Notes: generated by a model from the sequence alone, not told the origin. A stretch of DNA of 64,000 bases from Hyphomicrobiaceae bacterium (GCA_033764875.1 JANRIO010000011.1:6405-70404); one strand, 5' to 3'; positions 27,170 to 48,289 are shown, counted from the stretch's first letter. Numbers and translations are program-made.

Positions 27170-27416
27170 AGTAGGTATCCGGCCGCTTCAGGATCACACC
27201 CAGCGCTTTCGCGAGCAGCACCAGCCCGACGCAGGCCCCCAGGCCGTACCAGGCGGCAAACCCGAACAGTGCATCGAGACGGAAGTGGGGATGGTGCGGC
27301 ACGACCAGGTCGAGCAGCACGAGCACGGCCAGCACCAGCAGCCCGCCCGTCCACAGCAGCCTGATCGTGCTCGGCCGCACCAGCCAATGGTCGCCATCCT
27401 TGTCGGTCATGCTCAC
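27159..27416 (-). CDS. Small (85 aa) two-TM membrane protein embedded in the Mrp-like operon
   Basis: ATGA overlap with the upstream D-like gene and an 11-nt overlap with the downstream one. Two hydrophobic helices. No family recognised. Confidence 0.55.
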   Translation of the reverse strand: MSMTDKDGDHWLVRPSTIRLLWTGGLLVLAVLVLLDLVVPHHPHFRLDALFGFAAWYGLGACVGLVLLAKALGVILKRPDTYYDE

Positions 27417-32114: not shown

Positions 32115-32389
32115 TTGGCCTCCTTGTCCGCATCGTAGGCAAGATCGCCATGGCGGAAGAACTTCAGCACCGCCAGCGTCGAGATCACGTTGAGCAGGCC
32201 GTAGGTAATGCCGATGTCGAGCCACTCCGGCCGGCCGGTGAGAAAGCCGACCACGGCGAGCAGCAGGATCGCCAGCGTGCCCACCGAGTTGCCGGCGAGC
32301 ACCCGGTCGAACACCGTCGGACCGCGGATCGCCCGCACCACGGCCAGAAGCAGGGCGATCAGGATCGCGACGGCTGCAGCAGCAAACAT
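32111..32389 (-). CDS. mrpF: Mrp antiporter subunit F
   Basis: 92 aa, three TM helices, GPTVFDRVLAGNSVG motif. Confidence 0.75.
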   Translation of the reverse strand: MFAAAAVAILIALLLAVVRAIRGPTVFDRVLAGNSVGTLAILLLAVVGFLTGRPEWLDIGITYGLLNVISTLAVLKFFRHGDLAYDADKEAK

Positions 32390-32889
32390 CAAGCCCCTCC
32401 TTCGAACCTCTTGACGCGGGCATCCATGCCTCCGGCTTCCAGATCGAGCGCGCCGTCGCGGACAAGCGCGTGCACCGTGAGGCGGTTGCCTCGCACGCCG
32501 GTGGTGATCGTGCCTGGAGTGAGGGTGATCGAGTTCGCGTAGGTCGCAATGCCGGCCGAGGTCCGCTGGCTCGCCGTCACCACCGTCATGGTCGGCGAGA
32601 TCGGCAGTCGGGGATGAAGAATGATCCTCGTCACCGCCCACGCCGACTTGGCGATCTCCCAGACGAGCCAAGGGAAATAGGTCAGCGCCTGCCCGAACAG
32701 GTGGGCCGGATGCCCCTCGTCGTCGACCACCTTCATGCGGGCCCCGACGAGAACGCACAGCAGCGAGCACGCCGCGCCGATCCCGATCAGTAGCGGAGTG
32801 TAGTGGCCGGACAGGGCCAGCCAGAATGCGAACAGCAAGACGCCGAGACTGACGTAACGCATGAGCCCTCCCCGTATGCCAGAGGTCAC
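32389..32889 (-). CDS. mrpE: Mrp antiporter subunit E (first gene of the operon)
   Basis: MnhE-like FWLALSG...YANSITLTPGT. Possible alternative start at 32862 (MRYVSLG). Confidence 0.75.
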   Translation of the reverse strand: MTSGIRGGLMRYVSLGVLLFAFWLALSGHYTPLLIGIGAACSLLCVLVGARMKVVDDEGHPAHLFGQALTYFPWLVWEIAKSAWAVTRIILHPRLPISPTMTVVTASQRTSAGIATYANSITLTPGTITTGVRGNRLTVHALVRDGALDLEAGGMDARVKRFEGGA

Positions 32890-33205
32890 GTCCGGCGTGG
32901 CCTCTGGGACGTACCCTGCCTAGACCTGGGCAGCGGGAGCCTCTCCCCCATCTCCGCAGCGGTTCGCTCCCTGACAATCTCTAGGCCAGGAATACTGCGT
33001 GGGCAACTGATCCATCTGGCGGGTTGCTGGGTCCCACGTCCAGGATTGGGTCGCCGGCAATTGGACCCGGCCCCGACCATCTCCACAGCCCGAATAAGGC
33101 CGCCAATAGTCTGCCCATCGGCAGTGCGATGCTCCATCGAAACCCGTCCGAGGGGGACCGCGAAGGTCCTTGCCCTCATCGGTCCGTCTGGGAGAGTGTG
33201 CAAGC

Positions 33206-33940
33206 ATGAAGCTCGATGATCCGAAGGCGACTGCCCTGTTCCTCGATCTCGATGGGACGCTGATCGACATCGCACCGACGCCGGACAGCGTGCACGTTCC
33301 CGATGGCCTTGCCGCGATGCTGGGGGAGCTGACACGCCAGCTCGACGGGGCGCTGGCGATCGTGACGGGGCGCACGATCGCGGATGTCGACCGCTTCCTT
33401 GCGCCGTTGACGCCGGTGGCGGCAGGCGTGCACGGCGCGGAGCTGCGTCACGGGCCTGGCGGTGAGATCACGGTCAGGGCGGATCCGATCGATGCCGGGG
33501 TGGCCCAGTCGGTGCGGCGGGTGGCAGCCGAGCACGCCTCCGTCATGGTCGAGACCAAGCATGCCTCCATCGCCGTGCACTACCGCCAGGCGCCGTCGCT
33601 TGCCCCGGTTCTGGAGGTCGCGCTCGCGCGCATCCTCGACGATGGCCCGGACCATCTCATTCTCGCGCACGGGCGCCAGGTCTTCGAGATCGTACCCCGG
33701 CACGTTTCCAAGGGCGCGGCGCTGCAAGCGATCATGGATCTGCCGGCCTTTGCCGGTCGGCGGCCCGTCATGATCGGCGATGACGTCCCCGACGTGCCGG
33801 CGCTGGAGGCGGCGATCCGTCTCGGCGGCTCGGGTCTGCGGGTGGCCGGCGAGCACTTCTCCCCCGCCGAGGCCGACTTCATGGGGCCGGTCGAGGTTCG
33901 CGCCTGGCTCCGGGCCCTCTCGGAAGGGCTCGCACGATGA
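33206..33940 (+). CDS. otsB: Trehalose-6-phosphate phosphatase (HAD family)
   Basis: LFLDLDGTLIDIAP (HAD motif I), IVTGR, and GDDVPD motif. Immediately upstream of otsA. Confidence 0.85.
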   Translation: MKLDDPKATALFLDLDGTLIDIAPTPDSVHVPDGLAAMLGELTRQLDGALAIVTGRTIADVDRFLAPLTPVAAGVHGAELRHGPGGEITVRADPIDAGVAQSVRRVAAEHASVMVETKHASIAVHYRQAPSLAPVLEVALARILDDGPDHLILAHGRQVFEIVPRHVSKGAALQAIMDLPAFAGRRPVMIGDDVPDVPALEAAIRLGGSGLRVAGEHFSPAEADFMGPVEVRAWLRALSEGLAR

Positions 33941-34004
33941 CGGTGCCGCCATCGCGCGGCCTTGCCGGCGGCGGCACCGGTGGCCAGGCCAGGGAGGGCG
34001 AGTG

Positions 34005-36290
34005 ATGGCGCGCCTTGATCGTCTCCGCACCCGCTTGCTTGCGCTGGCGCGACGCGCGGGCGCCGACCGCTTCTGGCGCAACCCGCTCACCCGCTACGCC
34101 GCGTTGGCGCTGGCTGCAGCCCTCATCATGATTGCCGCCATTGCGCCGCTGGCGTCCGTGATGGTCGAGGGCTGGTCGAACCGCGACATCGAGTTGCGCG
34201 CCCGCCTCGTGTTTCGCTCCATTCGCGACCAGGTGGCGGTCGGCATTGCCGCCAAGCCCGATTTCGATCTCATCCCCTTCTTCGAGCGGCTGGCCGAGGA
34301 CGAGCGCATCCTCGCGCTGGGCTACTGCACCGATCAGGGCCAGTTGCGCTATGCGACAAAGCTGCTGCCCAAGGCCGTCACCTGCGCCAGCATCAAGCGC
34401 GACAAGAGCGACACCGTCGCCACGGTCGCCGATGCGGGCCGACGCATCCATGTCAGCGCCTTCCCCATCACGGCGGGATCCGCGACCGGGCACCTGCTGG
34501 TGTTGCACGACCTTGCCTACATCGACGAGCGCGCGAGGGAGGCGCGGCTCTATTCCGTGCTGGCCCTTGTCGGCGTGGCGACGGGCCTCGGGCTGCTGGC
34601 GGCCGCAATCTTTCTCGGCCTCATGCGGGCGTGGGCCCGCTCCATCCGCTCCGCCATCGTCGACGCACAGGCCACCGGCGGCGAGGCCGCCGGCCCCCAG
34701 CGCAGCGATTTCCCCATAAGCCGGGAGGTGCACGCCGTGCTCGCCGAGATGCGGCTCGAGCGGCGCTTCGCCGACGGCATTCATGTCGAATGGTCGCCCA
34801 AGACGTTGCACCGGCTTCTCAGGGAAGAGTTGCCCGGCGCCGAGGTGCTGGTCGTCTCGAACCGCGAGCCCTACATTCACTACCGGACCAATGGCGCAGT
34901 CGCCGTTCAGATCCCGGCCAGCGGCCTCGTCGCCGCCCTCGAGCCCGTCATGCGCGCCTGCGGCGGCACCTGGATCGCCCACGGATCTGGCAGCGCCGAC
35001 CGGGAGACGGTCGACGTGCACGACCGTCTGCGCGTCCCGCCGGCAAGCCCGGCCTATACGCTCAGGCGCGTATGGCTCACGGACGAGGAGCAGGACGGCT
35101 ACTACTACGGACTGGCCAACGAGGGGCTGTGGCCGCTCTGTCATATCGCCTTCGTGCGTCCGACCTTTCGCGAGCAGGACTGGGCGCAGTACCAGGCGGT
35201 CAACGCGCGCTTCGCCGACGCCGTCGTGGCGGAGGCCGCGACCGAGGATCCCATCGTTCTCGTCCAGGACTACCACTTCGCCCTGCTGCCGCGGATGATC
35301 CGCAAGCGGTTGCCGAAAGCCACCGTCATCACCTTCTGGCACATCCCCTGGCCGAACGCGGAGACGTTCAGCATCTGCCCGTGGCGCGAGGAGATCATCG
35401 ACGGGCTTCTCGGCAGCACCATCCTCGGCTTCCACACCCAGTTCCACTGCAACAACTTCATCGAGGCGGCCGACCGCTTCATGGAGAGCCGCATCGACCG
35501 CGAGCATTCCTCGGTCACGCTCGGTGGTCACGAGACGCTCATCCGGCCCTATCCGATTTCGATCGAATGGCCCCCGGCCGCGCTTGCCGATCAGGCTCCC
35601 GTGCGCGAATGCCGGGACGCCGTGAGGCAGCGGTTCTCGTTGCCTCCGGACGTTCGCATCGCCGTGGGCATCGAGCGTTTCGACTACACGAAAGGCATCT
35701 TCGACCGCATCCGTGCCATCGACGACCTGCTCGCGCGGCAGCCCGAGTGGCGTGGCAAGCTCGTCTTCATCCAGGCCGCCGCGCCGACCCGCAGCAAGCT
35801 CGAGGCCTACAGCACGCTGCAAGCGGAAGCGGTGCGGTTCGCCGAGGAGACCAACGCGCGCCACGCGAGCAACGGCTACAAGCCGATCCTGCTCGTCATT
35901 CGCCATCATGAGCCGGCCGAGGTCTACGAGCTGTTCCGCGCCGCCGACATCTGCATCGTCTCGAGCCTGCACGACGGCATGAACCTCGTCGCCAAGGAGT
36001 TCGTCGCCGCTCGCGACGACGAGCGCGGCATTCTCGTGCTCTCGAGCTTCGCAGGCGCCTCGCGCGAGCTGTCGGAGGCGCTGATCGTCAACCCCTACGA
36101 CACCCACGGCATGGCCGAGGCGCTCGGGCAGGCATTGCGCATGCCGGCCACCGAGCAGCGCGACCGCATGCGCCTGATGCGCGAGCTCGTCCGCCAGCGC
36201 AACGTCCACCGCTGGGCCGCCCAGATGCTGCTCGACGCGGCCCGACTGAGGAGGAGGGAGCGGGTCATCGGAGCACCTGCGGCCCGATGA
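34005..36290 (+). CDS. otsA: Trehalose-6-phosphate synthase (GT20) fused to a ~280-aa N-terminal two-TM module
   Basis: GT20 core from about aa 285 ([56 protein letters not shown]). The N-terminus has helices [23 protein letters not shown] and [25 protein letters not shown] flanking about 150 aa. Confidence 0.85.
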
Positions 36291-36360: not shown

Positions 36361-36801
36361 TCAATGCAGGAACGTGACGCTGGTTCGCTCGACTCGCCAT
36401 TGCAGCCGCGTCCTGTCGCTGCCCTCCGGCAGCCCTTCGAGGTCGGGGTAGGGCAAGCATTGGCCGGCGCTCTGCCCGGGCCGCAGCGTCTCGTCCAGCT
36501 TCAGGATCCGGCGCGGGACCAGGTTGCCGGTCTTACCCGGCAGCCGCGCCTCGATCACGAACTCGATGTCGATGGCCGTCCACGCCGACGTGTTGTCGGC
36601 GCGCACGAGAAGGGAGGTACGAGGGTCGGGGCAGTTGCCCGCGGCGAGCGTCAGCACGACCCTGTCCTGCGCCGCCACGCGCTGCCTGTCGTCGTACCAG
36701 TGCAGCGCCAGGCCTGCGGCGGCGAACAGCGACAGCACGATGGCGAGATTGCGCAATGTGCGCGAGGCGCGCGGGTTGGCGGATGGCGTGTCCACACTCA
36801 T
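36361..36801 (-). CDS. Hypothetical membrane-anchored protein
   Basis: A single N-terminal TM (LRNLAIVLSLFAAAGLALHWY) and a non-repetitive body. No family recognised. Confidence 0.45.
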   Translation of the reverse strand: MSVDTPSANPRASRTLRNLAIVLSLFAAAGLALHWYDDRQRVAAQDRVVLTLAAGNCPDPRTSLLVRADNTSAWTAIDIEFVIEARLPGKTGNLVPRRILKLDETLRPGQSAGQCLPYPDLEGLPEGSDRTRLQWRVERTSVTFLH

Positions 36802-36928: not shown

Positions 36929-37228
36929 TCAGGTCTTGGCAGCGCCGGCCCGGCGCTCCTGGTTGCGCTGCCAGTACACGAACAGGACGGACACCACCGC
37001 CGTGATGATCGCCGTGAGCTGGATCTCGGGGCGCTGGATGAAGACCAGCCAGGCGTTGAGGCCCGCCGAGAAGGAGGGCTGCTTGCCCGCCAGCATGCCG
37101 TTCGCCACCATGATCGCGAACAGGACGAGCGAGCTGAGCGCCAAAGCCATCGCGATCTGCATCGTCCGCTTCAGAACCCTGGGCACCGGCAGTCGGCGTC
37201 CCGCGACAACCAGGCTGGTTGTATCCAT
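36929..37228 (-). CDS. Hypothetical small membrane protein (~99 aa, three hydrophobic segments)
   Basis: From MDTTSLVVAGRR... inside the track ORF 36929-37360. No family recognised. Confidence 0.4.
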   Translation of the reverse strand: MDTTSLVVAGRRLPVPRVLKRTMQIAMALALSSLVLFAIMVANGMLAGKQPSFSAGLNAWLVFIQRPEIQLTAIITAVVSVLFVYWQRNQERRAGAAKT

Positions 37229-37711
37229 CGAAGTCTCCTCGTCGCTGTTGGAGCAAAAGCCTCGATCGAAAAGGGGCCCGCACCTCCGGACGGCGGGCCG
37301 CACGCGGCTGCGCTTGCGCCCGTGCCTTGCCGGCAGAGCTCCGCGCGGCCAGCCGGGCAACGGCCGGCGGCACGCAGCCCGGTGCGGCGGTCCCCGAGGC
37401 GAGGATGAAGCATGCCCCCGGCGCTGCCAATAGCCGCGACCCCGCGCGCGGGCCTGGCGGGCGGAGCAAAGCCGGCTCGTGTCGCCAAAATTGCAGATGT
37501 GTTGCAGCTTTGCGTCGCGGGCCGCGTGCGCCCCGGGACGATTGCCGATTGCAATATGTTTCAGTGGATTGCGCGGCTGGCTCGTCGCGCCGCCAGCGCC
37601 CGCGACCCTCTGCGCGAGGTGCGCGCGTCACCGGCTGGCACGCGCGTTAACCAGTTCTTTACGCGGATCGACGCCCTTTGAGCGCATCTGTCTCGAAGGG
37701 GGCCGCTCTCC

Positions 37712-39070
37712 ATGCAAGTTGCCGATGCCGTCGAAAGCCTGAAGCCAGCACGTGCAATCTTCGTGGCGCTTGCCGCTGCTGCAGCCATTGTCGCTGCAAC
37801 CCCGGCCTCCGCCGCCGAGGGCTATATGCAGAACGGCATCGGCGCCCGCAACAAGGCGCTCGCCGGGGCCGGCGTCGCCAGCAGCACGGACGCGACGGCC
37901 GCCAGCCTCAACCCGGCCGGGCTCACCGGCGTGGAATCGCAGCTCGACAGCTCCACGTCCTTCTTCAACATGCGCGGCGGCTTCTCCTCCACCGGCTCCG
38001 GCGGCTTCACTGCCGACGGCTCGCACACCAGCCAGAAGGACTGGCTCGTGATCCCGAATTTCGCCGCCACCTGGCGCGTCAACTGGGGCTTTGCCGACGC
38101 CATCGCCTTCACCGCCTACGGCAACGGCGGCGTCATGACCCGCTACGCCGACATGCCGAACACCAGCTCGCTTTGCTCGAGCGGGTCCGGTGCCTACTGC
38201 GGCGGCCGCATGGGCATGGTCGCCCAGCAGCAGTTCTTCTCCATCGCGCTCGCCAAGCAGGTGAGCCCTGGCGTCTCCATCGGTATCGCGCCCATCCTCG
38301 CGCGCCAGACCATGGAGGTCGAAGGCCTCTCGCCGTTCGCGGGTCTGTCCAGCAACTCGGCCGCCTTCACCAACCGCGGCACCGACGAGAGCTGGGGCGG
38401 CGGAGTTCGCGCCGGCATCGAGTGGAAGGTGATGCCCGGCCTCAGGTTCGGCCTCGCCGGCAACTCGCGCGTCTACATGGGCAAGCTGAACCGCTACGCC
38501 GGCCTCTTCGCCGAGGAAGGCAGCATCGATGCGCCGCCCTCCCTGCAGGCGGGTCTTGCCTTCGACGTGCGTCCCAACCTGACCATGATGCTCGACTACA
38601 AGCGCATCTGGTTCAGCTCGGTGCGCTCGCTGAGCAATGCGTCGACCAATATCGCTGCGGCCTATGGCGGCGACCCCTCCTACCTGTTCGGCACCACCAA
38701 TGGTCCGGGCTTCGGCATGCAGGACATGGACATCTACAAGATCGCGCTGGAGTGGAAGGCCAACCCGAACCTGACGCTGCGCGGCGGCTACTCCTACAAC
38801 ACGGCGCCGTTCAGCTCGCGCGACGCCGACCTCACCGCCATGACCCTCGGCCTCGCCCAGCATCACCTGACCGCCGGCCTCAAGGTCGGCCTGACGGAGC
38901 GGATGGACCTTGAGGTCTCCGGCATGTACTCGCCGCGCATGACGCTTTCGGGTGAGGAGCTGCTCAACCCCAACCGCATCATGACGACCGAGTCGAGCCA
39001 GTTCGAGATCACGGTCGGTGCCGTCTACCGCTTCGGCGTCGACCGCGCCGCCCCAGCACCGCTCAAATGA
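37712..39070 (+). CDS. Outer-membrane hydrophobic-compound channel, FadL/OmpP1/TodX family
   Basis: Signal peptide, then the GYMQNGIGARNKALAGAGVA N-terminal hatch motif. Beta-barrel-like alternation. C-terminal ...VGAVYRF. Confidence 0.8.
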   Translation: MQVADAVESLKPARAIFVALAAAAAIVAATPASAAEGYMQNGIGARNKALAGAGVASSTDATAASLNPAGLTGVESQLDSSTSFFNMRGGFSSTGSGGFTADGSHTSQKDWLVIPNFAATWRVNWGFADAIAFTAYGNGGVMTRYADMPNTSSLCSSGSGAYCGGRMGMVAQQQFFSIALAKQVSPGVSIGIAPILARQTMEVEGLSPFAGLSSNSAAFTNRGTDESWGGGVRAGIEWKVMPGLRFGLAGNSRVYMGKLNRYAGLFAEEGSIDAPPSLQAGLAFDVRPNLTMMLDYKRIWFSSVRSLSNASTNIAAAYGGDPSYLFGTTNGPGFGMQDMDIYKIALEWKANPNLTLRGGYSYNTAPFSSRDADLTAMTLGLAQHHLTAGLKVGLTERMDLEVSGMYSPRMTLSGEELLNPNRIMTTESSQFEITVGAVYRFGVDRAAPAPLK

Positions 39071-39194
39071 TCTGCATCGCGTTAGGCCGGTCTTAACTAC
39101 TCCATAGAATGGATAAGTCGCATTAATCGAAAGGCGAGGCCTGAGGCGCATTCTGCCCCAGCACAAAGAGCAACTTTGTCTTGGGGTAGAGCGT

Positions 39195-40577
39195 ATGTCT
39201 GGCAGCGGTATCGCAGGCAAGCAGGGCGTTGCGTCCGAGGAATCCCTGAAGGGCAGCCTGCGCGATTTCAAGTCCGTCCGCGGCACGGACCTGATCGGCC
39301 GCTTCGACGGCTTCTACGCCTGGCAGGATCTGCGCCGCAGCAACGGCGTCTGGCCCTACGCCAAGTCGACGACCACCGCCCCGCGCACCTGCTGCACGGC
39401 GATGACCGATGACGGGCAGGCCTTCTCGGGCGTGAACTTCGCCTCGCAGGACTACCTGAGCCTCGCCTCGCATCCCGCCATCAAGGCCGCCGCCATCGAG
39501 GCCATCGAGGAGTACGGCGTGCACAGCGCCGGCTCGGCGGCGCTGCTCGGCAACACCAAGCATTCCCTCCAGCTCGAGCGCACCATCTGCGACTTCATCG
39601 GCGGCCGCGAGATCGTGCTCTATCCGACCGGCTGGTCGGCGGGCTTTGCCGCCGTGCAGGGCTTCGTCCGCCCCGACGATCACGTGGTGATGGATGTGCT
39701 GGCCCACTCCTGCCTGCAGGAGGGCGCGCGCGCCGCCACCCAGAACATCACCTACCACGGCCACCTGAACATCCGCGCCCTGGAGCGCCGGCTGCAGAAG
39801 ATCCGCGCCACCGACAAGGAGAACGGCATCCTGGTCGTGACCGAGAGCCTGTTCTCCATGCACTCGGACACGCCCGACATCGCAGCCCTCCGCGCCGCCT
39901 GCGACGCCTACGACGCCAAGCTGCTGGTCGACTGCGCGCACGACTTCGGCTGCATCGGCGAGGAGGGCCTCGGCCATCTCGGCCTGCAGAACATGCTGAA
40001 CGGCCCCGACATCATCGTCGGCAGCTTCTCCAAGACCTTCGCGGCCAACGGCGGCTTTGTCGCCGTCAAGACCAGGGCCGCCGCGGAGTACCTCAAGTAC
40101 TTCAGCGCGACGCAGACCTTCTCCAACGCCATGTCGCCGGCGCAGGCGGCCTCCGTCAACGCCGCCTTCCGCATCATCCGCTCGGCCGAGGGCAAGGAGC
40201 GCCGGCAGCGCCTCATGAGCAACATCCTGTACCTGCGCGGCGAGGTGCAGCGCGTCGGCATGGAGGTGCACGGCGACCCGTCCGCCATCGTGCCCGTGCG
40301 CCTGGGCGCCGAGGGCCTCGCCCGCATCGCCTCGCGCAATCTCGCCGAGCTCGGTGCCATCGCCAACCTCGTGGAGTACCCGGCCGTGCCGCAGGGCGGC
40401 GCCCGCTTCCGCGTGCAGGTGATGGCCGACCACCAGCGCGAGGAGATCGACGCCCTGGTGAAGGCGATGCTGGAGGCGATGCGCTCGGCCGACCTCGAGT
40501 TCCGCGCCCATCGCGAAGGCGACCGCGCGCCGCTGATCGGCGCGCGCCCGGCCGAAGGCGCCGGCAAGGCCGCCTGA
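39195..40577 (+). CDS. PLP-dependent alpha-oxoamine synthase family acyltransferase (BioF/KBL/SPT/CqsA superfamily; subfamily unresolved)
   Basis: NFASQDYLSLASHP, TGWSAGFAAV, LVDCAHDFG and the PLP-lysine motif GSFSKTF. SPT-like N-terminal DLIGRFDGF segment. Confidence 0.8.
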   Translation: MSGSGIAGKQGVASEESLKGSLRDFKSVRGTDLIGRFDGFYAWQDLRRSNGVWPYAKSTTTAPRTCCTAMTDDGQAFSGVNFASQDYLSLASHPAIKAAAIEAIEEYGVHSAGSAALLGNTKHSLQLERTICDFIGGREIVLYPTGWSAGFAAVQGFVRPDDHVVMDVLAHSCLQEGARAATQNITYHGHLNIRALERRLQKIRATDKENGILVVTESLFSMHSDTPDIAALRAACDAYDAKLLVDCAHDFGCIGEEGLGHLGLQNMLNGPDIIVGSFSKTFAANGGFVAVKTRAAAEYLKYFSATQTFSNAMSPAQAASVNAAFRIIRSAEGKERRQRLMSNILYLRGEVQRVGMEVHGDPSAIVPVRLGAEGLARIASRNLAELGAIANLVEYPAVPQGGARFRVQVMADHQREEIDALVKAMLEAMRSADLEFRAHREGDRAPLIGARPAEGAGKAA

Positions 40578-40917
40578 GGCGGCTTCGGCTCTCCAGGATT
40601 GCGAGCCCGCATTCGGCGGCGGCCAGGCCGCCGGCTGCACGCTGCCGGAGCGCCGCGGTGTCCGCGGCACGCAGAGCCCGCCGCGCTGCCGGCAGCCTTG
40701 TACTCGGCGCAGGCTGAACCGGGCTCATGGGCGGACCGCCCCCCATGGCGTACGGGCGAGCCGCAGCGCCGCGAGGGCGTGGCACCTCATCGGCGGTTGA
40801 CCTGCGTGCCCCAGCTGCCGCATCCATTCCCGTGAAAACATCGCAGAGAGCCAGCGTCCGGTGGAACCGAGACCAATACTCGGCATTTGTGCGGTACGCA
40901 TCATCACGGAGATCTGG

Positions 40918-41742
40918 ATGACGTTCCTAGGCAAGATCGCTCTGGCCTGCGCCGTTGCCGCACTGCCGCTGAGCACCGCCCAGAGCCAGGACGCCCCGCG
41001 CGCGGCTGACTACGCGCCCGTATCCGGCCAGGAGGGCAAGGATGTCGTCTGGGTGCCGACGGCCCAGGCCCTGGTCGATCGCATGCTGACCATGGCCAAG
41101 ATCACCCCGGATGACTTCGTCGTCGATCTTGGCTCGGGGGACGGGCGCACCGTGATCACTGCGGCCAAGCGCGGCGTCCGTGCGCACGGCATCGAGTACA
41201 ACCCGGAGCTGGTGGCTCTCTCTGAGAGGAACGCAAAGGAGGCGGGCGTTGACAAGCTTGCCACCTTCGAGCGCGCAGACATCTTCCAGTCGGACTTCTC
41301 CAAGGCGACCGTTGTCACTTTGTTCCTTCTGCCCGCCCTCAACGTGAAGCTGCGCCCGACGCTGCTCGGGATGAAGCCCGGCACGCGAGTCGTGTCCAAC
41401 AGCTTCGATATGGGTGATTGGGAGCCGGACGGGCGGATCGAGGCCGGCGGCAGCAATTGCACGAGCTACTGCCGGGCGATGATGTGGGTCATACCGGCGA
41501 AGGTCGGTGGCGCTTGGCGTCTCGGCGATGGTGCACTCCAGCTCACCCAGACCTATCAGATGCTCGGTGGCACGCTGACCCGCGGCCGCAAGGTCTTCCC
41601 GATCAGCTCGGCCCGCATGGCCGGCACGAGCATCACCTTCACCGCCGGCGGCAAGCGCTATGACGGCCGCGTCGACCATGGCACCATGACGGGGCACACC
41701 GAGGGCGGTGGCGCCTGGACCGCGACCCGCGTTGGGCACTAG
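40918..41742 (+). CDS. Class I SAM-dependent methyltransferase with a cleavable-looking signal peptide and a beta-rich C-terminal domain
   Basis: MTFLGKIALACAVAALPLSTAQS leader. SAM motif I VVDLGSGDGR. ATG at 40918 in the track ORF 40861-41742. Confidence 0.7.
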   Translation: MTFLGKIALACAVAALPLSTAQSQDAPRAADYAPVSGQEGKDVVWVPTAQALVDRMLTMAKITPDDFVVDLGSGDGRTVITAAKRGVRAHGIEYNPELVALSERNAKEAGVDKLATFERADIFQSDFSKATVVTLFLLPALNVKLRPTLLGMKPGTRVVSNSFDMGDWEPDGRIEAGGSNCTSYCRAMMWVIPAKVGGAWRLGDGALQLTQTYQMLGGTLTRGRKVFPISSARMAGTSITFTAGGKRYDGRVDHGTMTGHTEGGGAWTATRVGH

Positions 41743-41760
41743 CCGAGCGAGAGCGGGGGC

Positions 41761-42150
41761 CTAGAGCCCCGCCGCCACGCGGCCGAGCGCCAGCGCGTTC
41801 TCGATCTTGCCGAGCAGCCGGGCGAGGTCCACCGGCTTGGTGTCGAAGTCGCAGCAGCCGGCCGCCAGGCTGTTGCGCCTGTCGCTTTCGAAGGCGCTGG
41901 CCGTCAGCGCGATGATCGGGATGTTGGCCGTCGACGGGCGGCCCTTGATCTGCCGGGTCGCCTCCCATCCGTCCATCAGCTCCCCGAGCCCGATGTCCAT
42001 CAGGATCACGTCGGGCATCAGCCGCTCGGCGGCCTCGATGCCGGACGGACCGTCCTCGGCGAAGCGGACCGAGAAGCCGCGCTTCTCGAGCCGGCGTCCG
42101 AGCACGTCTCGGTTGATGGGGTTGTCCTCGATGACGAGTACGATGGGCAT
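41761..42150 (-). CDS. Single-domain response regulator (CheY-like receiver)
   Basis: VLVIEDNPINRDVL...DVILMDIGL...ALTA...KP. GGAGAG SD lies before the ATG at 42150. The track start at 42204 would overlap the kinase gene by 32 nt. Confidence 0.8.
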   Translation of the reverse strand: MPIVLVIEDNPINRDVLGRRLEKRGFSVRFAEDGPSGIEAAERLMPDVILMDIGLGELMDGWEATRQIKGRPSTANIPIIALTASAFESDRRNSLAAGCCDFDTKPVDLARLLGKIENALALGRVAAGL

Positions 42151-42172
42151 AAGCAGCTCTCCTGCGGCTTGC

Positions 42173-44041
42173 TCAGGCAGCGCGGACATCATGGTTGTGG
42201 CCATTTGCGCTGCAGGCGGTGTTGAGGGCCCTCAGCAGGGCATTGCGATCGACGGGCTTGGCGACGACGGCGGCCGCACCGGCCTGCAGCGCCCGCTTCT
42301 TCTCGTCGACGATGCTGAGGATGATGACGGGGATGGAGGCGGTCGCCGGGTCGGACTTCATGGCGGCCAGCACCGACCATCCGTCGAGCTCGGGCATCAG
42401 CACGTCGAGCAGCATCGCCTCGGGCTGCAGTGCTCGCGCAAGCTGCTTGGCACCCCTGGGATCGCTGCTGGCGACCACCGCATAGCCTTCCTTGCTGAGG
42501 AGGCGCTCGGCGATCTCGAGGAAGGCCGGGTCGTCGTCGACGACGAGGATGCGCTTGTCGCTGACAAGCGCGCCGAAGGCCACCTCGAGGTGCTCGCCGG
42601 GCCCCGCATTGCCGGCGCCGTTGCCGTCCGATACCGCGTTCTCCACCCGCGCCGCCGCCGGCGGCTGCGCGATCGCCGGCAGCCTGATCGTGAAGCACGA
42701 GCCCTTGCCGAGCTCGCTCTCGACCGAGATCCTGCCGCCCATCAGGTTGCAAAGGTTCTGGCTGAGCGACAGCCCGAGGCCCGTGCCGCCGTACTTCGAG
42801 GCGATCTTCGCGTTGGCCTGCGTGAAGTTCGAGAACAGCGTCTTGATCTGGTCCGGCGAGATGCCGACGCCGGTGTCCCTGACCGCGATCTCGATCCAGT
42901 CGCCGTCCTTCAGCGTCTCGCGGCGCACCTTGAGCGTGATCTCGCCGTTGTGCGTGAACTTGGTGGCATTGCTGACCAGGTTGAGCACCGCCTGGCGCAG
43001 CTTCGTGGCGTCGAGGTGGGCGGTGCCGAGCAGGCTCTCCCCGCGGTCGATGGTGAAGGCGTTGGTGTTCTTGGCCGCCAGCGGCCGCGAGTTGATCTCC
43101 ACCTCGTTGATCAGCTTGTCGAGGTCGACGTCCTCCAGGAACAGGTCCATGCGCCCGGCCTCGATCTTGGAGATGTCGAGGATGTCGTTGACCATCGACA
43201 GCAGATGCTGTCCCGCGGCGCTGATCTTCTGCAGGTCGCCGATCTGCTCGCCGCGTCCCTCCAGCTCCGCGTCCTCCAGCAGGATCTCGCTGTAGCCGAT
43301 CACGGCGTTGAGAGGGGTGCGCAACTCGTGGCTCATCTTGGCGAGGAATTCCGACTTGGCGCCGTTGGCGCGCTCGGCCTCCTCCTTGGCCTGCATCAGC
43401 TTCGTCAGCGTCGACTCGTGCCGCCCGATCTCGCGCAGCAGCTCCGACTGCGAATCGACGATCGTCGCGTAGTAGCTCGCCATCATCAGCACATACATCG
43501 CGGCCGAGAGCGTCGAGATCAGTCCGACGCCGACCATGTTTTCGATCGGGATGTGGACGGGGAAGCTCTGGCCCCACAGGTAGGTGAGGTAGAACGAGGC
43601 GAGGCCCGCCGTGATCTGCAGGAATACGACGCCGCGCGTCAGGTTGCTGGAGCCCATGTAGAAGAAGGCCAGCAGCGGCACCACGAGCAGCCACATCAGG
43701 AATGGCGAGCTCGCCCCGCCGTAGTTGAACGACCCCCACAGGATCGCGAAGATCAGGTTCTGCACCGAGAGCAGCGCCAGCACCGTGTAGTGCTGCGGCA
43801 GCAGCTTCACCAGGAACGGAAACACCCAGAACAGCGAGATCGACGCGCCGAGGATGGGCACGTGCGGCCACGGCTGCGGATCGGCCAGCCACAGGAAGGC
43901 GGTGATCGGATGGCTCAGGAACGGCCCGCACAGGTGGCTGATCAGGAACATCCGCTGCCGGCGCTGCTCGTTGCTGCCGGGACGGAGCTTCGGATCCGTG
44001 AACCAGTCGATTACGCCGCTTACCCGGTCGATGAACGTCAT
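42173..44041 (-). CDS. Hybrid sensor histidine kinase: ~6-TM N-terminal sensor, HisKA, HATPase_c, C-terminal receiver
   Basis: H-box [16 protein letters not shown] boxes ([20 protein letters not shown]). Receiver ILVVDDD...[12 protein letters not shown]...KP. About 180 aa of hydrophobic helices at the N-terminus. ATG at 44041. Confidence 0.85.
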
Positions 44042-44151
44042 GCCCTGCCCCGACGACAAACTCCGTGAGCCGATGGATGTTTTCCCACGACTGGATGAAT
44101 TATCCGTGGATTGGGCAGGCAACTCGGGGACCGGGCGGCGAGCCCGGTCGC

Positions 44152-44508
44152 TCAGCCTGGCTGCGCCAACGCGGCGATGGTCTGGGCGATGGTGGCGCCG
44201 ACGGCAGGCAGGCACAGGGCGACATCGGCGAGCTGCTCGCTCTCGATCTCGATGCCGCGCGCCATCCGGGAGAGCCGCACGGCGCCGAGGTTTGCCGCCA
44301 TGCCCTTGAGCTTGTGCGCGACGCGCTTGGCCTTTGCCAGCTCCTCGGCCGCCACCGCCGCCTTCAGCTCGTCGAGGCAGGCCGCGCACTGCCCTGGCAC
44401 CTGCGCCAGGATCTCGGCCACGTCCGCCGGATCGAGATCGGCGGTCCATTCGCCCATGACCGCCTCGTCGATCAGGGGAAGCGTCATGTCGGGCTCGCTG
44501 CGCACCAC
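44152..44508 (-). CDS. Histidine phosphotransfer (Hpt) domain protein
   Basis: Hpt signature [13 protein letters not shown]. 111-118 aa. Immediately upstream of the hybrid kinase. Confidence 0.75.
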
Positions 44509-44765: not shown

Positions 44766-46508
44766 ATGCGCAGGCCCACTGTCCTTGTCGTTGACGACGA
44801 TGCGTTCTCGCGGACCATCGTCAGCAAGAAGCTCAAGGCGCTGGCGGCCGTCATCGAGGCCGAGGACGGCCACGATGCTCTCTCCAAGGTGCAGGGCGTT
44901 CGCATCGACCTTGCGATCGTCGACCTCGAGATGCCGCGCTTCAATGGCCTCGACCTGATCAAGTGCATGCGCGGCATGCCGTCGCTGAAGCACATTCCCA
45001 TCATCGTCCTCACGGCCAACGAGACCCGCGGCTGCCTCGAGGAGGCGCTGATGGGCGGCGCCACGTCGTTTCTCCTGAAGCCGCTCAACTGGAGCGCGTT
45101 CGGCGAGCACATCTGCCACGTGATGGAGCTTGCCTATCGCGCCGGCCATCTCGCCTTGCACGATCATCTCACGGGCCTGCCCAACCGCATCCAGCTCAAC
45201 GAGCGGCTCGAGGGTGCGCTGGTCACGGCGCGGCCGGGCGCCTTCGTGGCGACCCACATGCTGGATCTCGACCAGTTCAAGATGATCAACGACACCATGG
45301 GCCACTCCGCCGGCGACGAGCTCCTGAAGCTCGTGGCCGATCGCCTGTGCGAGCTCGTCCGCGGCGTCGACACCGTCGCGCGCATGGGCGGTGACGAGTT
45401 CTCCATCGTGCAGCCCGGGATTGCGAGGCCGGCCGACGCGGCAGCGCTTGCCCAGCGCGTGATCGCCCGCGTCAGCGAGCCCTACGAGATCGCCGGTGTC
45501 CAGGTCGTCATCGGGACCACTGTCGGCATCTCCATCGCCGCGACCGGCGACTGCGAGCCCGAGCAGGAGCTGCGCAACGCCGACGTGGCCCTCTATCGCG
45601 CCAAGAAGGCGGGCCGCGGCACCTTCTGCTTCTTCGATATCGGCATGAACCTGGCGCTGCACGAGCGCCAGGAGCTCTCGGCCGATCTCGCCGTGGCCGT
45701 GGAGAAGAAGCAGTTCGAGCTGTTCTACCAGCCCGTGATCGGGCTCGAGACGCAGCGCATCAAGGCCTTCGAGGCGCTGATCCGCTGGCGCCATCCCGTG
45801 AAGGGCCTGATCCAGCCCGGTGCGTTCCTGGTGCTTGCCGAGCAGATGGGCCTCATCCTTCCGATCGGCGAATGGGTCCTGCAGGAGGCCTGCATGGCCG
45901 CCCAGCAGTGGCCGAAGGACCTGCGCGTCGCCGTCAACCTGTCGCCGGCGCATTTCAGAAGCCCGGGCCTGGTCGGCGCCGTCCGGCGGGCCCTGGAGAT
46001 GTCGGGCTTGGCGCCCGGTCGGCTCGAGATCGAGGTGACAGAGGCCATCCTCCTGCACAACGCCGCCGCCGCCCTGAAGGCGCTGCACGAGTTGCGCGCC
46101 ATGGGTGTGCGCATTGCCATGGACGACTTCGGCACCGGCTATTCCTCCATCAATCACCTGCAGAGCTTCCCCTTCGACAAGGTCAAGATCGACCAGTCCT
46201 TCGTCGAGGACGTGACCGACAATTCCAACTCGCTCAAGATCGTGCGCGCGGTGGCGGCGCTCGCCAACGGCCTCGGCATGGAGGCGACCGCGGAAGGCGT
46301 CGAGACCGAGGAGCAGCTGGCCGCGATCCGCGCCGAGGGCTGCACCGAGATGCAGGGCTTCCTCTCGAGCGAGCCCGTGCCCGTCGGCGAGATCCCCCTG
46401 CTGCTCCTGACCGAGCAGCTGCGCAATCCCGATTGCATCGCGCCGCCTGCCAGGCGTCACGGCGCGCTCCCGTCCTCGGACGCCCTTGCGAAGAGGGCGG
46501 CGCCGTGA
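44766..46508 (+). CDS. Response regulator with REC-GGDEF-EAL architecture (paralog 1)
   Basis: REC (VLVVDDD...AIVDLEMP...KP). I-site RGVD five residues before GGDEF. EAL motifs FEALIRW, DDFGTGYSS, KIDQSF, EGVETEEQ. Confidence 0.9.
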   Translation: MRRPTVLVVDDDAFSRTIVSKKLKALAAVIEAEDGHDALSKVQGVRIDLAIVDLEMPRFNGLDLIKCMRGMPSLKHIPIIVLTANETRGCLEEALMGGATSFLLKPLNWSAFGEHICHVMELAYRAGHLALHDHLTGLPNRIQLNERLEGALVTARPGAFVATHMLDLDQFKMINDTMGHSAGDELLKLVADRLCELVRGVDTVARMGGDEFSIVQPGIARPADAAALAQRVIARVSEPYEIAGVQVVIGTTVGISIAATGDCEPEQELRNADVALYRAKKAGRGTFCFFDIGMNLALHERQELSADLAVAVEKKQFELFYQPVIGLETQRIKAFEALIRWRHPVKGLIQPGAFLVLAEQMGLILPIGEWVLQEACMAAQQWPKDLRVAVNLSPAHFRSPGLVGAVRRALEMSGLAPGRLEIEVTEAILLHNAAAALKALHELRAMGVRIAMDDFGTGYSSINHLQSFPFDKVKIDQSFVEDVTDNSNSLKIVRAVAALANGLGMEATAEGVETEEQLAAIRAEGCTEMQGFLSSEPVPVGEIPLLLLTEQLRNPDCIAPPARRHGALPSSDALAKRAAP

Positions 46509-46573: not shown

Positions 46574-48289
46574 ATGCGAAAGCCAGCCGTCCTTATCGTC
46601 GACGACGATCCGATATGCCGCTCGATCGCGGCCAGGAAGCTCGAGGCGGTCGCCGACGTGGAGGAGGCGGCCGACGGCTTCGACGCCCTGGCGCATCTGC
46701 AGACCCGCACCTACGATCTCGCCATCATCGACCTCGAGATGCCGCTGTTCGACGGCTTCGCGCTGATGAAGGCTGTCCGCTCGCACCCGACCCTCAAGCA
46801 TATGCCGATGGTGGTCCTGACGGCGGACGAGACGCCGAACGCGCTCGAGCTCTCCCTCGTCGCGGGCGCCACGTCGTTCCTGGTGAAGCCGCTCAACTGG
46901 AAGATATTCGGTCCCCACATCCAGCACGTTCTCGACCTTGCCTTTCAGGCCGGTCACATCGCCCATCACGACATGCTGACGGAGCTGCCGAACCGCCGCT
47001 ATTTCAACCGGCGTGCGCAGGAGGCGCTTGCGGCTCTCCAGGGTGGCAAGGCGCTGGCCATCCACGCCATCGATCTCGACGGCTTCAAGTCGGTCAACGA
47101 CAGTCTCGGCCACGCCGCCGGCGATCGCCTGCTGCGCATGGTTGCGGACCGCATCCGGCCGCAATTGCGCGCCGAGGACGTGATTGCCCGCATGGGCGGC
47201 GACGAGTTCGCGATCCTGCAACCCAATGTCGCCTCCGAGAAGGACGCCAGGGGCCTGGCGGCGCGTCTTCTCGAGCAGTTCAAGGAGCCGTTCGCCGTCG
47301 ACCATCACTCTGTCTTTGTCGGCGCCAGCGTTGGCATTGCGCTCGCCCCTGAGCATTCCTCCGAGGCCGAGGCGCTCCTGCGTTGCGCCGACCAGGCCCT
47401 GTATCTGGCCAAGGCCTCCGGCCGCAGCGGCGTGCGCGTGTTCGATCCGGGCGTCGACGCCGAGCACCGGGCGCGCAAGGTCCTGCAGGCCGGCGTCGCC
47501 ACGGCCGTCGCCTCGCACGCCTTCCAGGTTCACTATCAGCCCGTGTTCCGCGTCGCCGATTCCGCCCTCACGGGCTTCGAGGCGCTGCTGCGCTGGAACG
47601 ACCCCGTCCACGGCTGCGTCAGCCCGGCCAAGTTCATTCCCATCGCGGAGGAATCTGGCGTCATCGCCGCCCTCTCCACCTGGGTGCTGCGCGAGGCGTG
47701 CCGGCAGGCGGAAAGATGGCCCAAGCCGCTGCGCGTCGCCGTCAACATCTCTCCGACCTTCCTGAAAGGGGTCGGCCTCGTCGAGGCCATTGAGATCGCG
47801 CTTGGCGCCTCCGGCATCGACCCGCAGCGCCTCGAGATCGAGATCACCGAGACCGGCCGCATCTGCGACAGCAAGGCCGCGGTCGAGACGCTCCACCGCA
47901 TCCGCCGGCTCGGCGTGCGCATCGTCAGCGACGACTTCGGCACCGGGCAATCGACCCTGCTCGAGCTGCAGGCGTTCCCCTTCGACAAGATCAAGATCGA
48001 CAAGTCGTTCGTGCAGAGGTCCGTGCACGATCGCAACTCCATGAGCATCATTCGCGCCGTCGCCTCCCTGGCCACCTCCATGGGCATCACCTCCACCGCC
48101 GAGGGCGTCGAGACCGACGAGCAGTTCCAGCTCGTGAACTCCTGCGGCTGCGACGAGGTGCAGGGCTTCCTCTTTGCGGGCGCCATGTCGGCACGCCAGC
48201 TGCCGCGCTTCATCGCCCGGCACACCGGATCGGGCTCCCAGCAGGCCGCCTCCAAGCCGCGCCGCAGGAAGGCCCTCGCGCCGACCTGA
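46574..48289 (+). CDS. Response regulator with REC-GGDEF-EAL architecture (paralog 2)
   Basis: Collinear with paralog 1: VLIVDDD...AIIDLEMP, RAED I-site, GGDEF, FEALLRW, DDFGTGQST, KIDKSF, EGVETDEQ. Confidence 0.9.
   Translation: MRKPAVLIVDDDPICRSIAARKLEAVADVEEAADGFDALAHLQTRTYDLAIIDLEMPLFDGFALMKAVRSHPTLKHMPMVVLTADETPNALELSLVAGATSFLVKPLNWKIFGPHIQHVLDLAFQAGHIAHHDMLTELPNRRYFNRRAQEALAALQGGKALAIHAIDLDGFKSVNDSLGHAAGDRLLRMVADRIRPQLRAEDVIARMGGDEFAILQPNVASEKDARGLAARLLEQFKEPFAVDHHSVFVGASVGIALAPEHSSEAEALLRCADQALYLAKASGRSGVRVFDPGVDAEHRARKVLQAGVATAVASHAFQVHYQPVFRVADSALTGFEALLRWNDPVHGCVSPAKFIPIAEESGVIAALSTWVLREACRQAERWPKPLRVAVNISPTFLKGVGLVEAIEIALGASGIDPQRLEIEITETGRICDSKAAVETLHRIRRLGVRIVSDDFGTGQSTLLELQAFPFDKIKIDKSFVQRSVHDRNSMSIIRAVASLATSMGITSTAEGVETDEQFQLVNSCGCDEVQGFLFAGAMSARQLPRFIARHTGSGSQQAASKPRRRKALAPT

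Follow-up and report, generated by a model that had tools for sequence, protein, structure and literature searches.

[quoted passage not shown] In Bacteroides fragilis, the AOS-family 'ligand synthase' LgsGA3 is encoded beside a presumed receptor, TetR-GA3, and its molecule is released from cells, indicating that signal synthases of the AOS type are not limited to Cqs/Lqs (PMC13080023). We examined a Hyphomicrobiaceae locus, within a 64,000-nucleotide stretch of DNA (the whole of which is hereafter the window), where a PLP-dependent enzyme of this family is encoded beside a hybrid kinase with a six-helix membrane sensor, as in Cqs/Lqs. At the level of the AOS family the arrangement also resembles LgsGA3, since the synthase gene adjoins a presumed receptor gene, but the B. 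fragilis receptor is a cytoplasmic TetR repressor rather than a membrane kinase and belongs to another phylum with other regulated functions (T6SS). We lean towards reading the locus as a self-contained small-molecule signalling module, built like alpha-hydroxyketone quorum sensing from non-orthologous parts, and the AOS and membrane kinase together make a strong candidate, judged from sequence, for a new cell-signalling system. Consistent with the initial annotation, which held that alpha-hydroxyketone-type systems had not been described in such alphaproteobacteria, our literature search for Hyphomicrobiales and Rhodobacterales found no description of an AOS-kinase system of this kind. In its build the proposed system recalls the CAI-1 system of Vibrio and Legionella, put together from unrelated parts.

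The six genes originally described were all present where they had been placed. On the plus strand are a FadL/TodX-family outer-membrane beta-barrel (37712..39070; Pfam Toluene_X, 39.8 bits against a cut-off of 29.7), the AOS-family PLP enzyme (39195..40577, 460 aa; Pfam Aminotran_1_2, E 2e-39, 136 bits) and a class I SAM-dependent methyltransferase (40918..41742, ORF from 40861; Pfam Methyltransf_31/25/11). The minus-strand operon runs from a stand-alone Hpt phosphotransfer protein (44152..44508, 118 aa; Pfam Hpt, 46.4 bits, HKLKG motif) through a hybrid sensor histidine kinase (42173..44041, 622 aa; Pfam HisKA, HATPase_c, REC) to a single-domain response regulator (41761..42150, 129 aa, longest ORF from 42204; Pfam Response_reg, 82.7 bits). 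The two convergent gene sets come into near-contact, as had been noticed, with the methyltransferase stop at 41742 and the receiver stop at 41761 lying 18 nt apart. Two plus-strand genes encoding REC-GGDEF-EAL proteins (44766..46508 and 46574..48289; Pfam REC, GGDEF and EAL in both) follow, the first divergent from the Hpt operon.

The 460-aa protein carries the defining residues of the AOS family (PLP fold type I, a subgroup of Pfam PF00155), namely a PLP lysine in S/T-x-x-K, a histidine that stacks against PLP, an Asp-x-x-His pair and a carboxylate-binding arginine. Aligned to E. coli BioF, its K280, H171, D246/H249 and R404 correspond to K236, H133, D204/H207 and R361, and E217/S221 also align to BioF catalytic residues. 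Both motifs singled out in the initial annotation, GSFSKTF (Lys280) and LVDCAHDFG, were found and are invariant in orthologues, the latter region keeping D-x-x-H as D246/H249. The fold and full catalytic residue set are thus common to this enzyme and to BioF, KBL, SPT and ALAS. Orthologues in the 80 genome loci are 65-89% identical, and the catalytic residues are invariant across 12 orthologues; the enzyme's own clade also conserves the first ~78 residues and has an invariant Gln in place of the Asn of the canonical N-D-Y-L motif. Given this conservation of catalytic residues, the protein, which represents a distinct clade, is probably catalytically competent. A cytoplasmic location is predicted, and the expected reaction is a decarboxylative Claisen condensation that joins an amino acid to an acyl thioester.

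We then considered whether the enzyme is a housekeeping BioF, KBL, ALAS or SPT isozyme whose position merely reflects inherited gene order, with FadL, AOS and methyltransferase forming an unrelated uptake or biosynthesis operon. BioF is its best single HMM match and source annotations read 'glycine C-acetyltransferase' or 'KAPA synthase-like', yet every curated model scored it below its cut-off: 261 bits against 426 for BioF (TIGR00858), 216 against 460 for KBL (NF005394, TIGR01822), 154-217 against 500-670 for SPT (NF047599, NF047600, NF047603), 161 against 339 for ALAS (TIGR01821) and 167.7 against 428 for the CqsA/LqsA type (NF005526). Identity to canonical alpha-oxoamine synthases is 25-32%, nearer to BioF (32%) than to CqsA (24%; 103 bits against structure 2wk7). 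In a neighbor-joining (NJ) tree with verified reference sequences, the enzyme's clade stood apart with 97% bootstrap and contained no BioF, KBL, SPT, ALAS or CqsA, bearing out the enzyme's proposed placement outside these groups. Unlike the canonical enzymes, it is linked to signalling genes and stands without pathway partners, and the earlier statement that bio, hem, sphingolipid and threonine genes are missing held within ~5 kb upstream and ~8 kb downstream; no second AOS copy was found elsewhere in the window. That the compared loci come from related lineages would favor inherited order, but the methyltransferase is not conserved, and adjacency to the kinase is kept despite changed surroundings, order and orientation, including in another bacterial order and an IS-flanked cassette. 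We consider a housekeeping role highly improbable. Within the separate clade are fusions to FAAL, ACP, acyl-CoA dehydrogenase (ACAD), monooxygenase and cNMP-binding domains, and the first three imply fatty-acyl substrates. Other clade relatives adjoin LuxR-type or BTAD/AAA/TPR regulators, and more distant members lie in unrelated gene contexts.

Evidence for a link between enzyme and kinase comes from 160 related loci (80 genome and 80 metagenome), which are themselves phylogenetically related, so that the counts given here overstate the number of independent events: searching from the AOS side, the kinase was found within 3.5 kb in 61/64 informative genome loci and the receiver, adjoining the kinase, within 3.5 kb in 59/64, while searching from the kinase sensor-domain side recovered an AOS in 36/37 informative metagenome loci. 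Because the window's other flanking genes recurred at not a single one of the 160, the adjacency is more than a chance one. The pairing is kept in at least three gene orders: convergent AOS and receiver-kinase genes, as in the window; co-directional AOS-kinase with a 4-nt overlap (L081); and co-directional kinase-receiver-AOS (L143, L151, L152, L154). Within Hyphomicrobiales it spans several genera and groups at family level, and it reaches a Rhodobacterales chromid, where Pseudorhodobacter carries an IS-flanked cassette of OMP, AOS, kinase and REC genes whose kinase is 38% identical to that of the window, transmembrane domain included. Culturable carriers include Devosia, Nitratireductor arenosus, Neomesorhizobium albiziae, Oceaniradius stylonematis and Pseudorhodobacter turbinis. 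Against a strict link, the AOS gene of three informative loci (L001, L006 and L063) has no kinase gene next to it. These observations support the AOS and six-TM hybrid kinase as near-obligate neighbours. The functional tie originally proposed between the AOS, the polytopic hybrid kinase and the receiver thus agrees with adjacency in both search directions and its survival of gene-order shuffling, and the three genes are the apparent core of the module. Such synteny shows that the genes are coupled, not in which direction.

From its start at the ATG at 44041 (the ORF as listed extends to 44449), the kinase opens with an N-terminal helix, continues through six transmembrane helices (aa ~24-208) and ends in HisKA, HATPase_c and REC domains. 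As anticipated, its sensor is small and polytopic: the AlphaFold2 model of this ~200-aa region shows the N-terminal helix and six long transmembrane helices joined by short loops only (pLDDT 90.1). Residues 1-210 had no Pfam or NCBIfam match even at E<=10 and the domain model had no fold match in the PDB; the short loops and missing family match together indicate that there is no recognisable periplasmic domain. The sensor, for which 61 orthologues were aligned, falls in an unnamed family marked by the conserved motif YGGxSSPFLxW…PLLAFFY. A six-helix receptor of this form, as modelled, would suit a lipid ligand.

This sensor layout, encoded beside an AOS gene, is that of CqsS and LqsS, the kinases of alpha-hydroxyketone quorum sensing by CqsA/CqsS/LuxU in Vibrio and LqsA/LqsS/LqsR in Legionella. 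In both cases the hybrid kinase has six TM helices and the Hpt is a protein of its own, the expected signal is hydrophobic and acyl-derived, and the convergent synthase and kinase genes repeat the geometry seen in Vibrio cqsA/cqsS loci. The locus could accordingly be asked to be a true family member with CqsA, CqsS and LuxU orthologues, and the CqsA clade does sit beside the window's AOS clade in the NJ tree, with just 22% support. The parts, however, differ. In addition to the AOS score and its separate clade, the kinase TM region had no BLASTP match to CqsS, whose alignment to the kinase was limited to the catalytic core (24%) and REC (27%), and hhalign gave a sensor homology probability of 0.2% (a 63-sequence profile against a thin profile built from two Vibrio CqsS sensors only). 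In its core the kinase has a canonical Pfam HisKA, matched best in NCBIfam by TorS and BarA, in line with the earlier description of its H-box as BarA/ArcB-like rather than CqsS-like, whereas CqsS has no precomputed Pfam HisKA match. The Hpt protein scored 17 bits against the LuxU model NF041948 (cut-off 140) and is, by sequence, apparently a generic Hpt domain protein rather than a LuxU-type one. The taxa are Alphaproteobacteria, and the apparent output consists of c-di-GMP enzymes and single-domain receivers rather than a LuxO/sRNA cascade. We therefore reject Cqs/Lqs membership, to which we attach almost no probability; because the AOS falls below the CqsA cut-off and the sensor lacks detectable CqsS homology, the system is analogous rather than orthologous, as had been suspected.

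The domains and motifs of a multistep His-Asp-His-Asp phosphorelay are all encoded here: an H-box His, a receiver Asp, an Hpt His and a terminal receiver with D, T and K. The single-domain receiver, which by our reading starts at an ATG at 42150 with an AGGAG ribosome-binding site, has its acidic pocket, Asp, Thr and Lys all present, and its orthologues are 58-90% identical. With this composition, the phosphoryl group in the window's clade would probably pass from the kinase His to the kinase's own REC Asp and on to the Hpt His, with the single-domain receiver and the REC-GGDEF-EAL proteins as final acceptors. The initial annotation was right that an Hpt gene lies in the operon, but the gene is clade-specific: orthologues occurred only in L002-L004, L009, L060 and closely related metagenome contigs, and no Hpt was found near the kinase outside this clade.

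After the kinase and receiver, the most constant partners are GGDEF-EAL proteins, a rank that the earlier description had missed; in 38/45 loci such a protein is encoded no more than 6 kb away from the AOS. Both REC-GGDEF-EAL proteins in the window have intact GGDEF, EALxR, DDFGTG, EGVE and QGF motifs. The first has orthologues (60-80% identity) at the corresponding place in L002-L004, and the second is a tandem paralogue (~48% identical), as judged from both queries matching the same loci at 48%. In most other genomes, a PAS-GGDEF-EAL gene is instead divergent from the AOS. Recurrence of these partners implies a c-di-GMP output, and the first REC-GGDEF-EAL protein is likely the point at which the phosphorelay makes or breaks c-di-GMP.

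Signalling of this general shape is known from the DSF/BDSF systems, RpfF/RpfC/RpfG in Xanthomonas and RpfF-Bc/RpfR in Burkholderia. DSF is received by a polytopic membrane hybrid kinase that combines REC and Hpt functions and passes its output to a REC-linked c-di-GMP enzyme, rpfR adjoins rpfF-Bc, and RpfF is a crotonase-fold enoyl-CoA hydratase. The module resembles these in its putative lipid-derived signal, polytopic hybrid kinase and REC-linked c-di-GMP output, and the divergent PAS-GGDEF-EAL gene beside the AOS in most related genomes recalls rpfR/rpfF-Bc. Its sensor domain, by contrast, is of an unnamed family, and its synthase candidate is a PLP-dependent AOS rather than a crotonase-family RpfF, on which ground we rejected membership of the DSF (Rpf) systems. 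The genes scanned between 32.4 and 52.8 kb of the window included no crotonase gene.

In the signalling module that we favor, family chemistry suggests that the AOS would catalyse, in the cytoplasm, a condensation between a fatty-acyl thioester and an amino acid that gives a hydrophobic alpha-aminoketone, used as such or converted, for example to a hydroxyketone or pyrazine. By synteny and precedent, the molecule would enter membranes and be read by the kinase's membrane-embedded six-helix domain, a FadL-type channel perhaps taking it through the outer membrane in the window's clade. Ligand binding would shift the kinase/phosphatase balance, and the pathway would set c-di-GMP levels rather than control transcription directly.

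The same synteny fits the opposite direction equally well. The AOS could be the regulated output, with the kinase sensing some other membrane or envelope cue and steering the enzyme through receivers or c-di-GMP in a loop of envelope-lipid homeostasis, the product being an amino-lipid or long-chain-base-like compound. Many genomes co-transcribe a receiver gene directly after the AOS (a second receiver, absent from the initial annotation), and cNMP-binding-domain fusions in some relatives suggest allosterically regulated enzymes. Bacterial sphingolipid synthesis uses a trio of acyl-CoA synthetase, ACP and SPT, which the FAAL-ACP-AOS fusions recall, and L063 retains AOS, receiver and PAS-GGDEF-EAL with the kinase absent. 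AOS conservation is also high: the identity among orthologues exceeds that of the kinase, a pattern that is unusual for signal synthases that diversify and that counts against the AOS as a signal source. On the other hand, no reductase, ceramide synthase, ACP or acyltransferase for conversion to a membrane lipid is conserved nearby, and the SPT models score far under their cut-offs. A mobile, IS-flanked four-gene cassette better fits a signal and receptor unit, and known pairs of an AOS and an adjacent regulator are synthase-receptor pairs. We regard the AOS as regulated output as a possible but less probable account, perhaps the better one in a minority of outcomes.

The plus-strand neighbours of the AOS contribute less to the signalling module than had been supposed. 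FadL is indeed present and adjoins the AOS, but it is not core, being confined to the window's own clade. The protein belongs to the FadL/TodX/OMPP1 family (Pfam PF03349), its match spanning model positions 3-351 of 421, and by inspection its N-terminus resembles a signal peptide (…ATPASA|AEGY). Orthologues (51-78% identical) were upstream of the AOS only in nine loci (L001-L004, L006, L009, L060, L089, L097), always directly or with one REC-HATPase gene between, and other clades have an unrelated small outer-membrane beta-barrel in its place. No export, reduction or transamination enzyme was conserved alongside the AOS. An exported methyltransferase had been proposed as a further component, but a tblastn search of the 160 related loci came back without a single homologue. 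The methyltransferase is therefore no member of the system; it is an unrelated local insertion between the AOS and receiver genes. Its translation probably begins at the ATG at 40918, after which comes what looks by eye like a signal peptide, and its best NCBIfam match is an archaeal protein-lysine methyltransferase (97 bits against a cut-off of 200).

All six genes of a putative signalling system named in the initial annotation were found at the locus (G+C ~69%), where genes were called from an ORF listing with a third-position GC filter and families were assigned by Pfam and NCBIfam scans. On the plus strand lie an outer-membrane protein of the FadL/TodX family (37712-39070; 39.8 bits to Toluene_X, above the cut-off of 29.7), a 460-aa enzyme of the PLP-dependent alpha-oxoamine synthase (AOS) family (39195-40577) and a class I SAM methyltransferase (ORF 40861-41742), whose likely start at 40918 is just ahead of a signal-peptide-like stretch. 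The minus strand encodes an Hpt protein (44508-44152), a 622-aa hybrid histidine kinase with a six-TM sensor (42173-44041), for which we read the start from the sequence as the ATG at 44041 (MTFIDRV) and not 44449, and a single-domain receiver (41761-42150), most likely translated from the ATG at 42150, which an AGGAG precedes by 8 nt. The tight spacing of these three genes suggests a single operon, from which two REC-GGDEF-EAL genes (44766-46508 and 46574-48289), both with intact catalytic motifs, diverge. Upstream of the module are a GT20 glycosyltransferase and two small ORFs of no assigned family. The former is an 836-aa protein (33780-36290) with its GT20 (trehalose-6-phosphate synthase-like) domain confined to residues 356-819 and no Pfam match in the N-terminal ~350 aa; the latter (36361-36801 and 36929-37627, minus strand) have coding-like GC3, match no family significantly and are without homologues in all related loci. 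Scanning 36.8-45 kb for promoter and terminator consensus sequences gave no match, as is often the case for such scans in GC-rich sequence.

We then examined the neighbourhood of the AOS in one genome per GTDB species, using an alignment of AOS orthologues as the query. The scan returned 569 relatives, the best 80 of which were 65-89% identical and came from Hyphomicrobiaceae MAGs, Nitratireductor, Neomesorhizobium, Phyllobacterium, Roseitalea, Oceaniradius, Salaquimonas and Devosia. Where at least 3.5 kb was available downstream of the AOS (n = 64 loci), the kinase was present in 61, full length, 53-84% identical and on the opposite strand, and the receiver in 59 (58-90% identical); a GGDEF-EAL gene lay within 6 kb in 38 of 45 loci. 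The methyltransferase, GT20 protein, small ORFs, deacetylase and monooxygenase of the window were absent from all of these genome loci. In the reverse test, metagenome contigs were scanned with the kinase sensor-domain alignment alone, and an AOS (54-80% identity) was found in 36 of the 37 loci long enough to judge. The proposed co-occurrence of AOS and kinase was thus recovered from either partner, in counts that come from phylogenetically related loci and are not independent events.

The commonest arrangement was convergent, with the AOS facing a receiver-kinase pair. In other loci a co-directional kinase came next after the AOS (L116, L117, L120, L122, L145 and L146), or kinase, receiver and AOS were read in that order from one strand (L143, L151, L152 and L154). 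At locus L081, the gene for an AOS 54% identical to that of the window (P0151) shares 4 nt with the start of the next gene, which encodes a non-hybrid kinase. The latter matches the window kinase at 37% identity, membrane domain included, and is followed by a REC-GGDEF-EAL gene. On a 1.58-Mb replicon of Pseudorhodobacter turbinis (Rhodobacterales), genes for an outer-membrane beta-barrel, AOS, kinase (38% identical to the window kinase, aligned from residue 10 onwards) and receiver share one strand. This compact cassette (NZ_CP039965; 3655-12342 of locus L170) has transposase genes of the IS110, IS3 and DDE types on its flanks, which suggests that the module moves horizontally. Since the adjacency outlasts reshuffling, change of lineage and apparent mobility while other neighbours change, it is strong evidence of functional coupling, and from this gene order we consider it very probable that AOS and kinase work together.

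By sequence, the core of the module is the AOS, the six-TM kinase and the single-domain receiver. A GGDEF-EAL enzyme is a very frequent companion, REC-linked in the window's clade and elsewhere a PAS-GGDEF-EAL protein of ~800 aa whose gene diverges from that of the AOS. The AOS gene is also frequently followed at once by a gene for a further single-domain receiver, which retains its phospho-acceptor residues. FadL is restricted to the window's clade (L001-L004, L006, L009, L060, L089 and L097), and so is Hpt, for which an HMM search of all 80 genome loci gave matches in that clade alone. The initial annotation had counted both among the components, which holds for the window's clade but overstates them as general parts. 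In other clades an unrelated small outer-membrane beta-barrel sits beside the kinase (36 of 80 genome loci; 14 of 80 metagenome loci), and in Pseudorhodobacter yet another outer-membrane protein adjoins the AOS. With different proteins in different clades, an outer-membrane protein is a recurrent accessory, though not one same protein. Three loci lack an adjacent kinase. L001, a Hyphomicrobiaceae MAG with the closest AOS (89%), has FadL and AOS followed by an HrpB helicase and a Na/H exchanger, not the receiver-kinase-Hpt operon; its kinase either sits elsewhere in the genome or has been lost. The others are L006 and L063, the latter with PAS-GGDEF-EAL, AOS and receiver followed by rplT and pheST. 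At L006, L009 and L060 (e.g. L060, 2125-3312), a ~395-aa REC-HATPase_c protein lies between FadL and AOS, an extra two-component element within the synthase operon.

The methyltransferase, which the initial annotation had placed in the pathway, was rejected as a member, as no related locus carries one. Its gene sits between those for the AOS and the receiver, and its C-terminal domain (~90 aa) has no Pfam or NCBIfam match; with its signal-peptide-like N-terminus it would be an odd case of an exported SAM-dependent enzyme. The gap between AOS and methyltransferase holds neither conserved intergenic DNA nor a remnant of an AOS-linked receiver gene.

Aligned with E. coli BioF, the AOS keeps all catalytic residues (H171, E217/S221, D246/H249, K280 and R404). 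The LVDCAHDFG stretch, earlier read as standing in place of the usual motif, is indeed present, but the alignment shows that it remains a D-x-x-H motif. Scores fell below the cut-offs of the models for BioF (261 bits, cut-off 426), KBL (216, cut-off 460), SPT (154-217, cut-offs 500-670), ALAS (161, cut-off 339) and CqsA-type synthases (168, cut-off 428), so that by sequence the enzyme is outside every curated family tested. Among solved structures, BioF, SPT and KBL were about equally near (159-168 bits) and CqsA furthest (103 bits). A protein of identical sequence has been recorded in a Hyphomicrobiaceae MAG. When 1.84 billion representative proteins were searched exhaustively with HMMER, the relatives formed a continuous series (34-54% identity) and had in common the N-terminal ~65 residues, for which there was no Pfam or NCBIfam match even at E<=10. 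In a neighbour-joining tree with capped Kimura distances, the window AOS and 54 relatives, fusion proteins among them, formed one clade (97% bootstrap) with all five references outside, CqsA being its sister with 22% support only. These references were CqsA (100% identical to 2wk8), KBL (1fc4), ALAS from the 2bwn alignment, and BioF and SPT taken from alignments, checked against the PDB. The AOS thus stands apart from all five reference families, which are among those against which the initial annotation had suggested comparing it, and its sub-cut-off scores, separate clade and kept adjacency led us to reject a housekeeping role.

Many relatives within this clade are fusions (P0157, P0168, P0160, P0173, P0170, P0165 and P0172 being multidomain), among them FAAL-ACP-AOS, FAAL-acyl-CoA dehydrogenase-ACP-AOS, FAD monooxygenase-AOS, AOS-cNMP-binding domain and ACP-AOS-FeeM. 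Fusion to fatty-acid-activating domains suggests that the clade takes fatty-acyl thioester substrates. Solved structures gave no match above ~170 bits to the fusions, and no kinase was present in the genomic contexts of the distant fusions P0157, P0165 and P0170 or of the relatives P0152 and P0156. Other distant members lie beside different regulators: a LuxR-type (GerE) HTH protein 73 bp upstream in the Salipiger sp. CCB-MM3 plasmid (L169, 6795-9290), and a BTAD/AAA/TPR regulator with GGDEF-HD at L084 and L085. Members of one enzyme clade may therefore have different receptors as partners.

In the kinase, residues 1-210 had no counterpart in Pfam or NCBIfam, even with the threshold relaxed to E<=10. 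Sixty-one orthologues align well, with a sensor mean identity of 57% and a strongly conserved motif, YGGxSSPFLxW…PLLAFFYxG. A confident AlphaFold2 model of the sensor (pLDDT 90.1, pTM 0.84) has an N-terminal helix and six long helices, the last extending towards HisKA. Foldseek against the PDB gave nothing at E<=0.001, the top hits (GPCRs and the adiponectin receptor, TM<=0.36) being taken as noise, and a word-index search with the sensor domain found 28 unnamed fragments only. For comparison with CqsS we recovered Vibrio cqsA loci. By BLASTP, only the catalytic core (24%) and REC (27%) align; profile-profile comparison of the sensors gave a probability of 0.2%, a test which, because the CqsS profile held two sequences only, leaves room for very remote homology.

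The logic of the system resembles CqsA/CqsS/LuxU of Vibrio and LqsA/LqsS of Legionella, and Vibrio cqsA and cqsS are convergent, as are the window AOS and kinase. Yet family membership fails for synthase, sensor and Hpt, and orthology to Cqs was rejected on all three. The reading in the initial annotation holds at its core, errs on the methyltransferase and is too broad on FadL and Hpt. A review lists Cqs/Lqs clusters for Gamma- and Betaproteobacteria only (PMC3376566). The output side is like that of DSF/BDSF systems (RpfC/RpfG, RpfR), whereas the synthase chemistry differs. A Bacteroides AOS-family 'ligand synthase' acts via adjacent TetR regulators (2026 study, PMC13080023), which makes AOS enzymes as signal sources an emerging theme. 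No description of the present AOS-kinase module was found in the literature searched, an absence of evidence from incomplete coverage.

What the sequences show directly is the gene and domain make-up, the intact motifs for catalysis and phosphoryl acceptance, and the near-obligate adjacency. In the mechanism we propose, the AOS would join an amino acid and a fatty-acyl thioester by condensation, and the resulting hydrophobic aminoketone, perhaps after further conversion, would be sensed within the membrane by the six-helix domain of the kinase. A His-Asp-His-Asp relay via Hpt would then reach the single-domain receiver and REC-GGDEF-EAL proteins, with c-di-GMP as output. FadL homologues assist long-chain AHL perception in Sinorhizobium; here FadL or another outer-membrane protein may aid the hydrophobic molecule across the outer membrane. 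The main alternative reverses the arrow, so that the relay controls the AOS and the AOS product is a membrane lipid. In its favour are a receiver co-transcribed with the AOS, the fusions with cNMP-binding domains and how strongly the AOS is conserved, yet no lipid-finishing enzymes are conserved alongside and the cassette is compact and mobile; we consider this reversal rather unlikely. By analogy with known systems we lean slightly towards the AOS as synthase and the kinase as receptor of its product. The fuller proposal is more tentative: an unrecognised quorum-sensing-type system in several Hyphomicrobiales genera and on one Rhodobacterales chromid, in which a new AOS clade might supply a new lipid-like aminoketone-derived autoinducer to a new six-helix kinase family that signals to c-di-GMP, carried as a mobile cassette, with FadL or small beta-barrels as outer-membrane channels aiding signal passage.

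Acyl-homoserine lactones predominate among the chemical languages of Alphaproteobacteria. If the proposal is true, a second, lipid-aminoketone-based and c-di-GMP-wired system would add a new signal class and receptor family in soil, marine and plant-associated bacteria, and the pairing of an AOS synthase with a membrane kinase would have arisen repeatedly. With Cqs/Lqs and the Lgs/TetR pair of Bacteroides added, AOS enzymes would emerge as a general means by which bacteria make signals. The system would also offer a way into the function of a large and uncharacterised clade of AOS enzymes, FAAL/ACP/ACAD fusions included, and the hypothesis is directly testable as cultured type strains carry the module. 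Culturable carriers are Devosia sp., Nitratireductor arenosus CAU 1489, Neomesorhizobium albiziae DSM 21822, Oceaniradius stylonematis StC1 and Pseudorhodobacter turbinis S12M18.

Elsewhere in the window, a stretch with lower G+C and positive AT skew (25484-32919) had, from its base composition, raised suspicion of an rRNA operon at 27-32 kb, which was rejected by Rfam. On its minus strand this stretch carries an ordinary Mrp-type multi-subunit cation/proton antiporter operon (two Proton_antipo_M, MbhD/E and MnhE), and a Na/Ca exchanger gene (24361-25290) and a tRNA (24194-24267) are also present.
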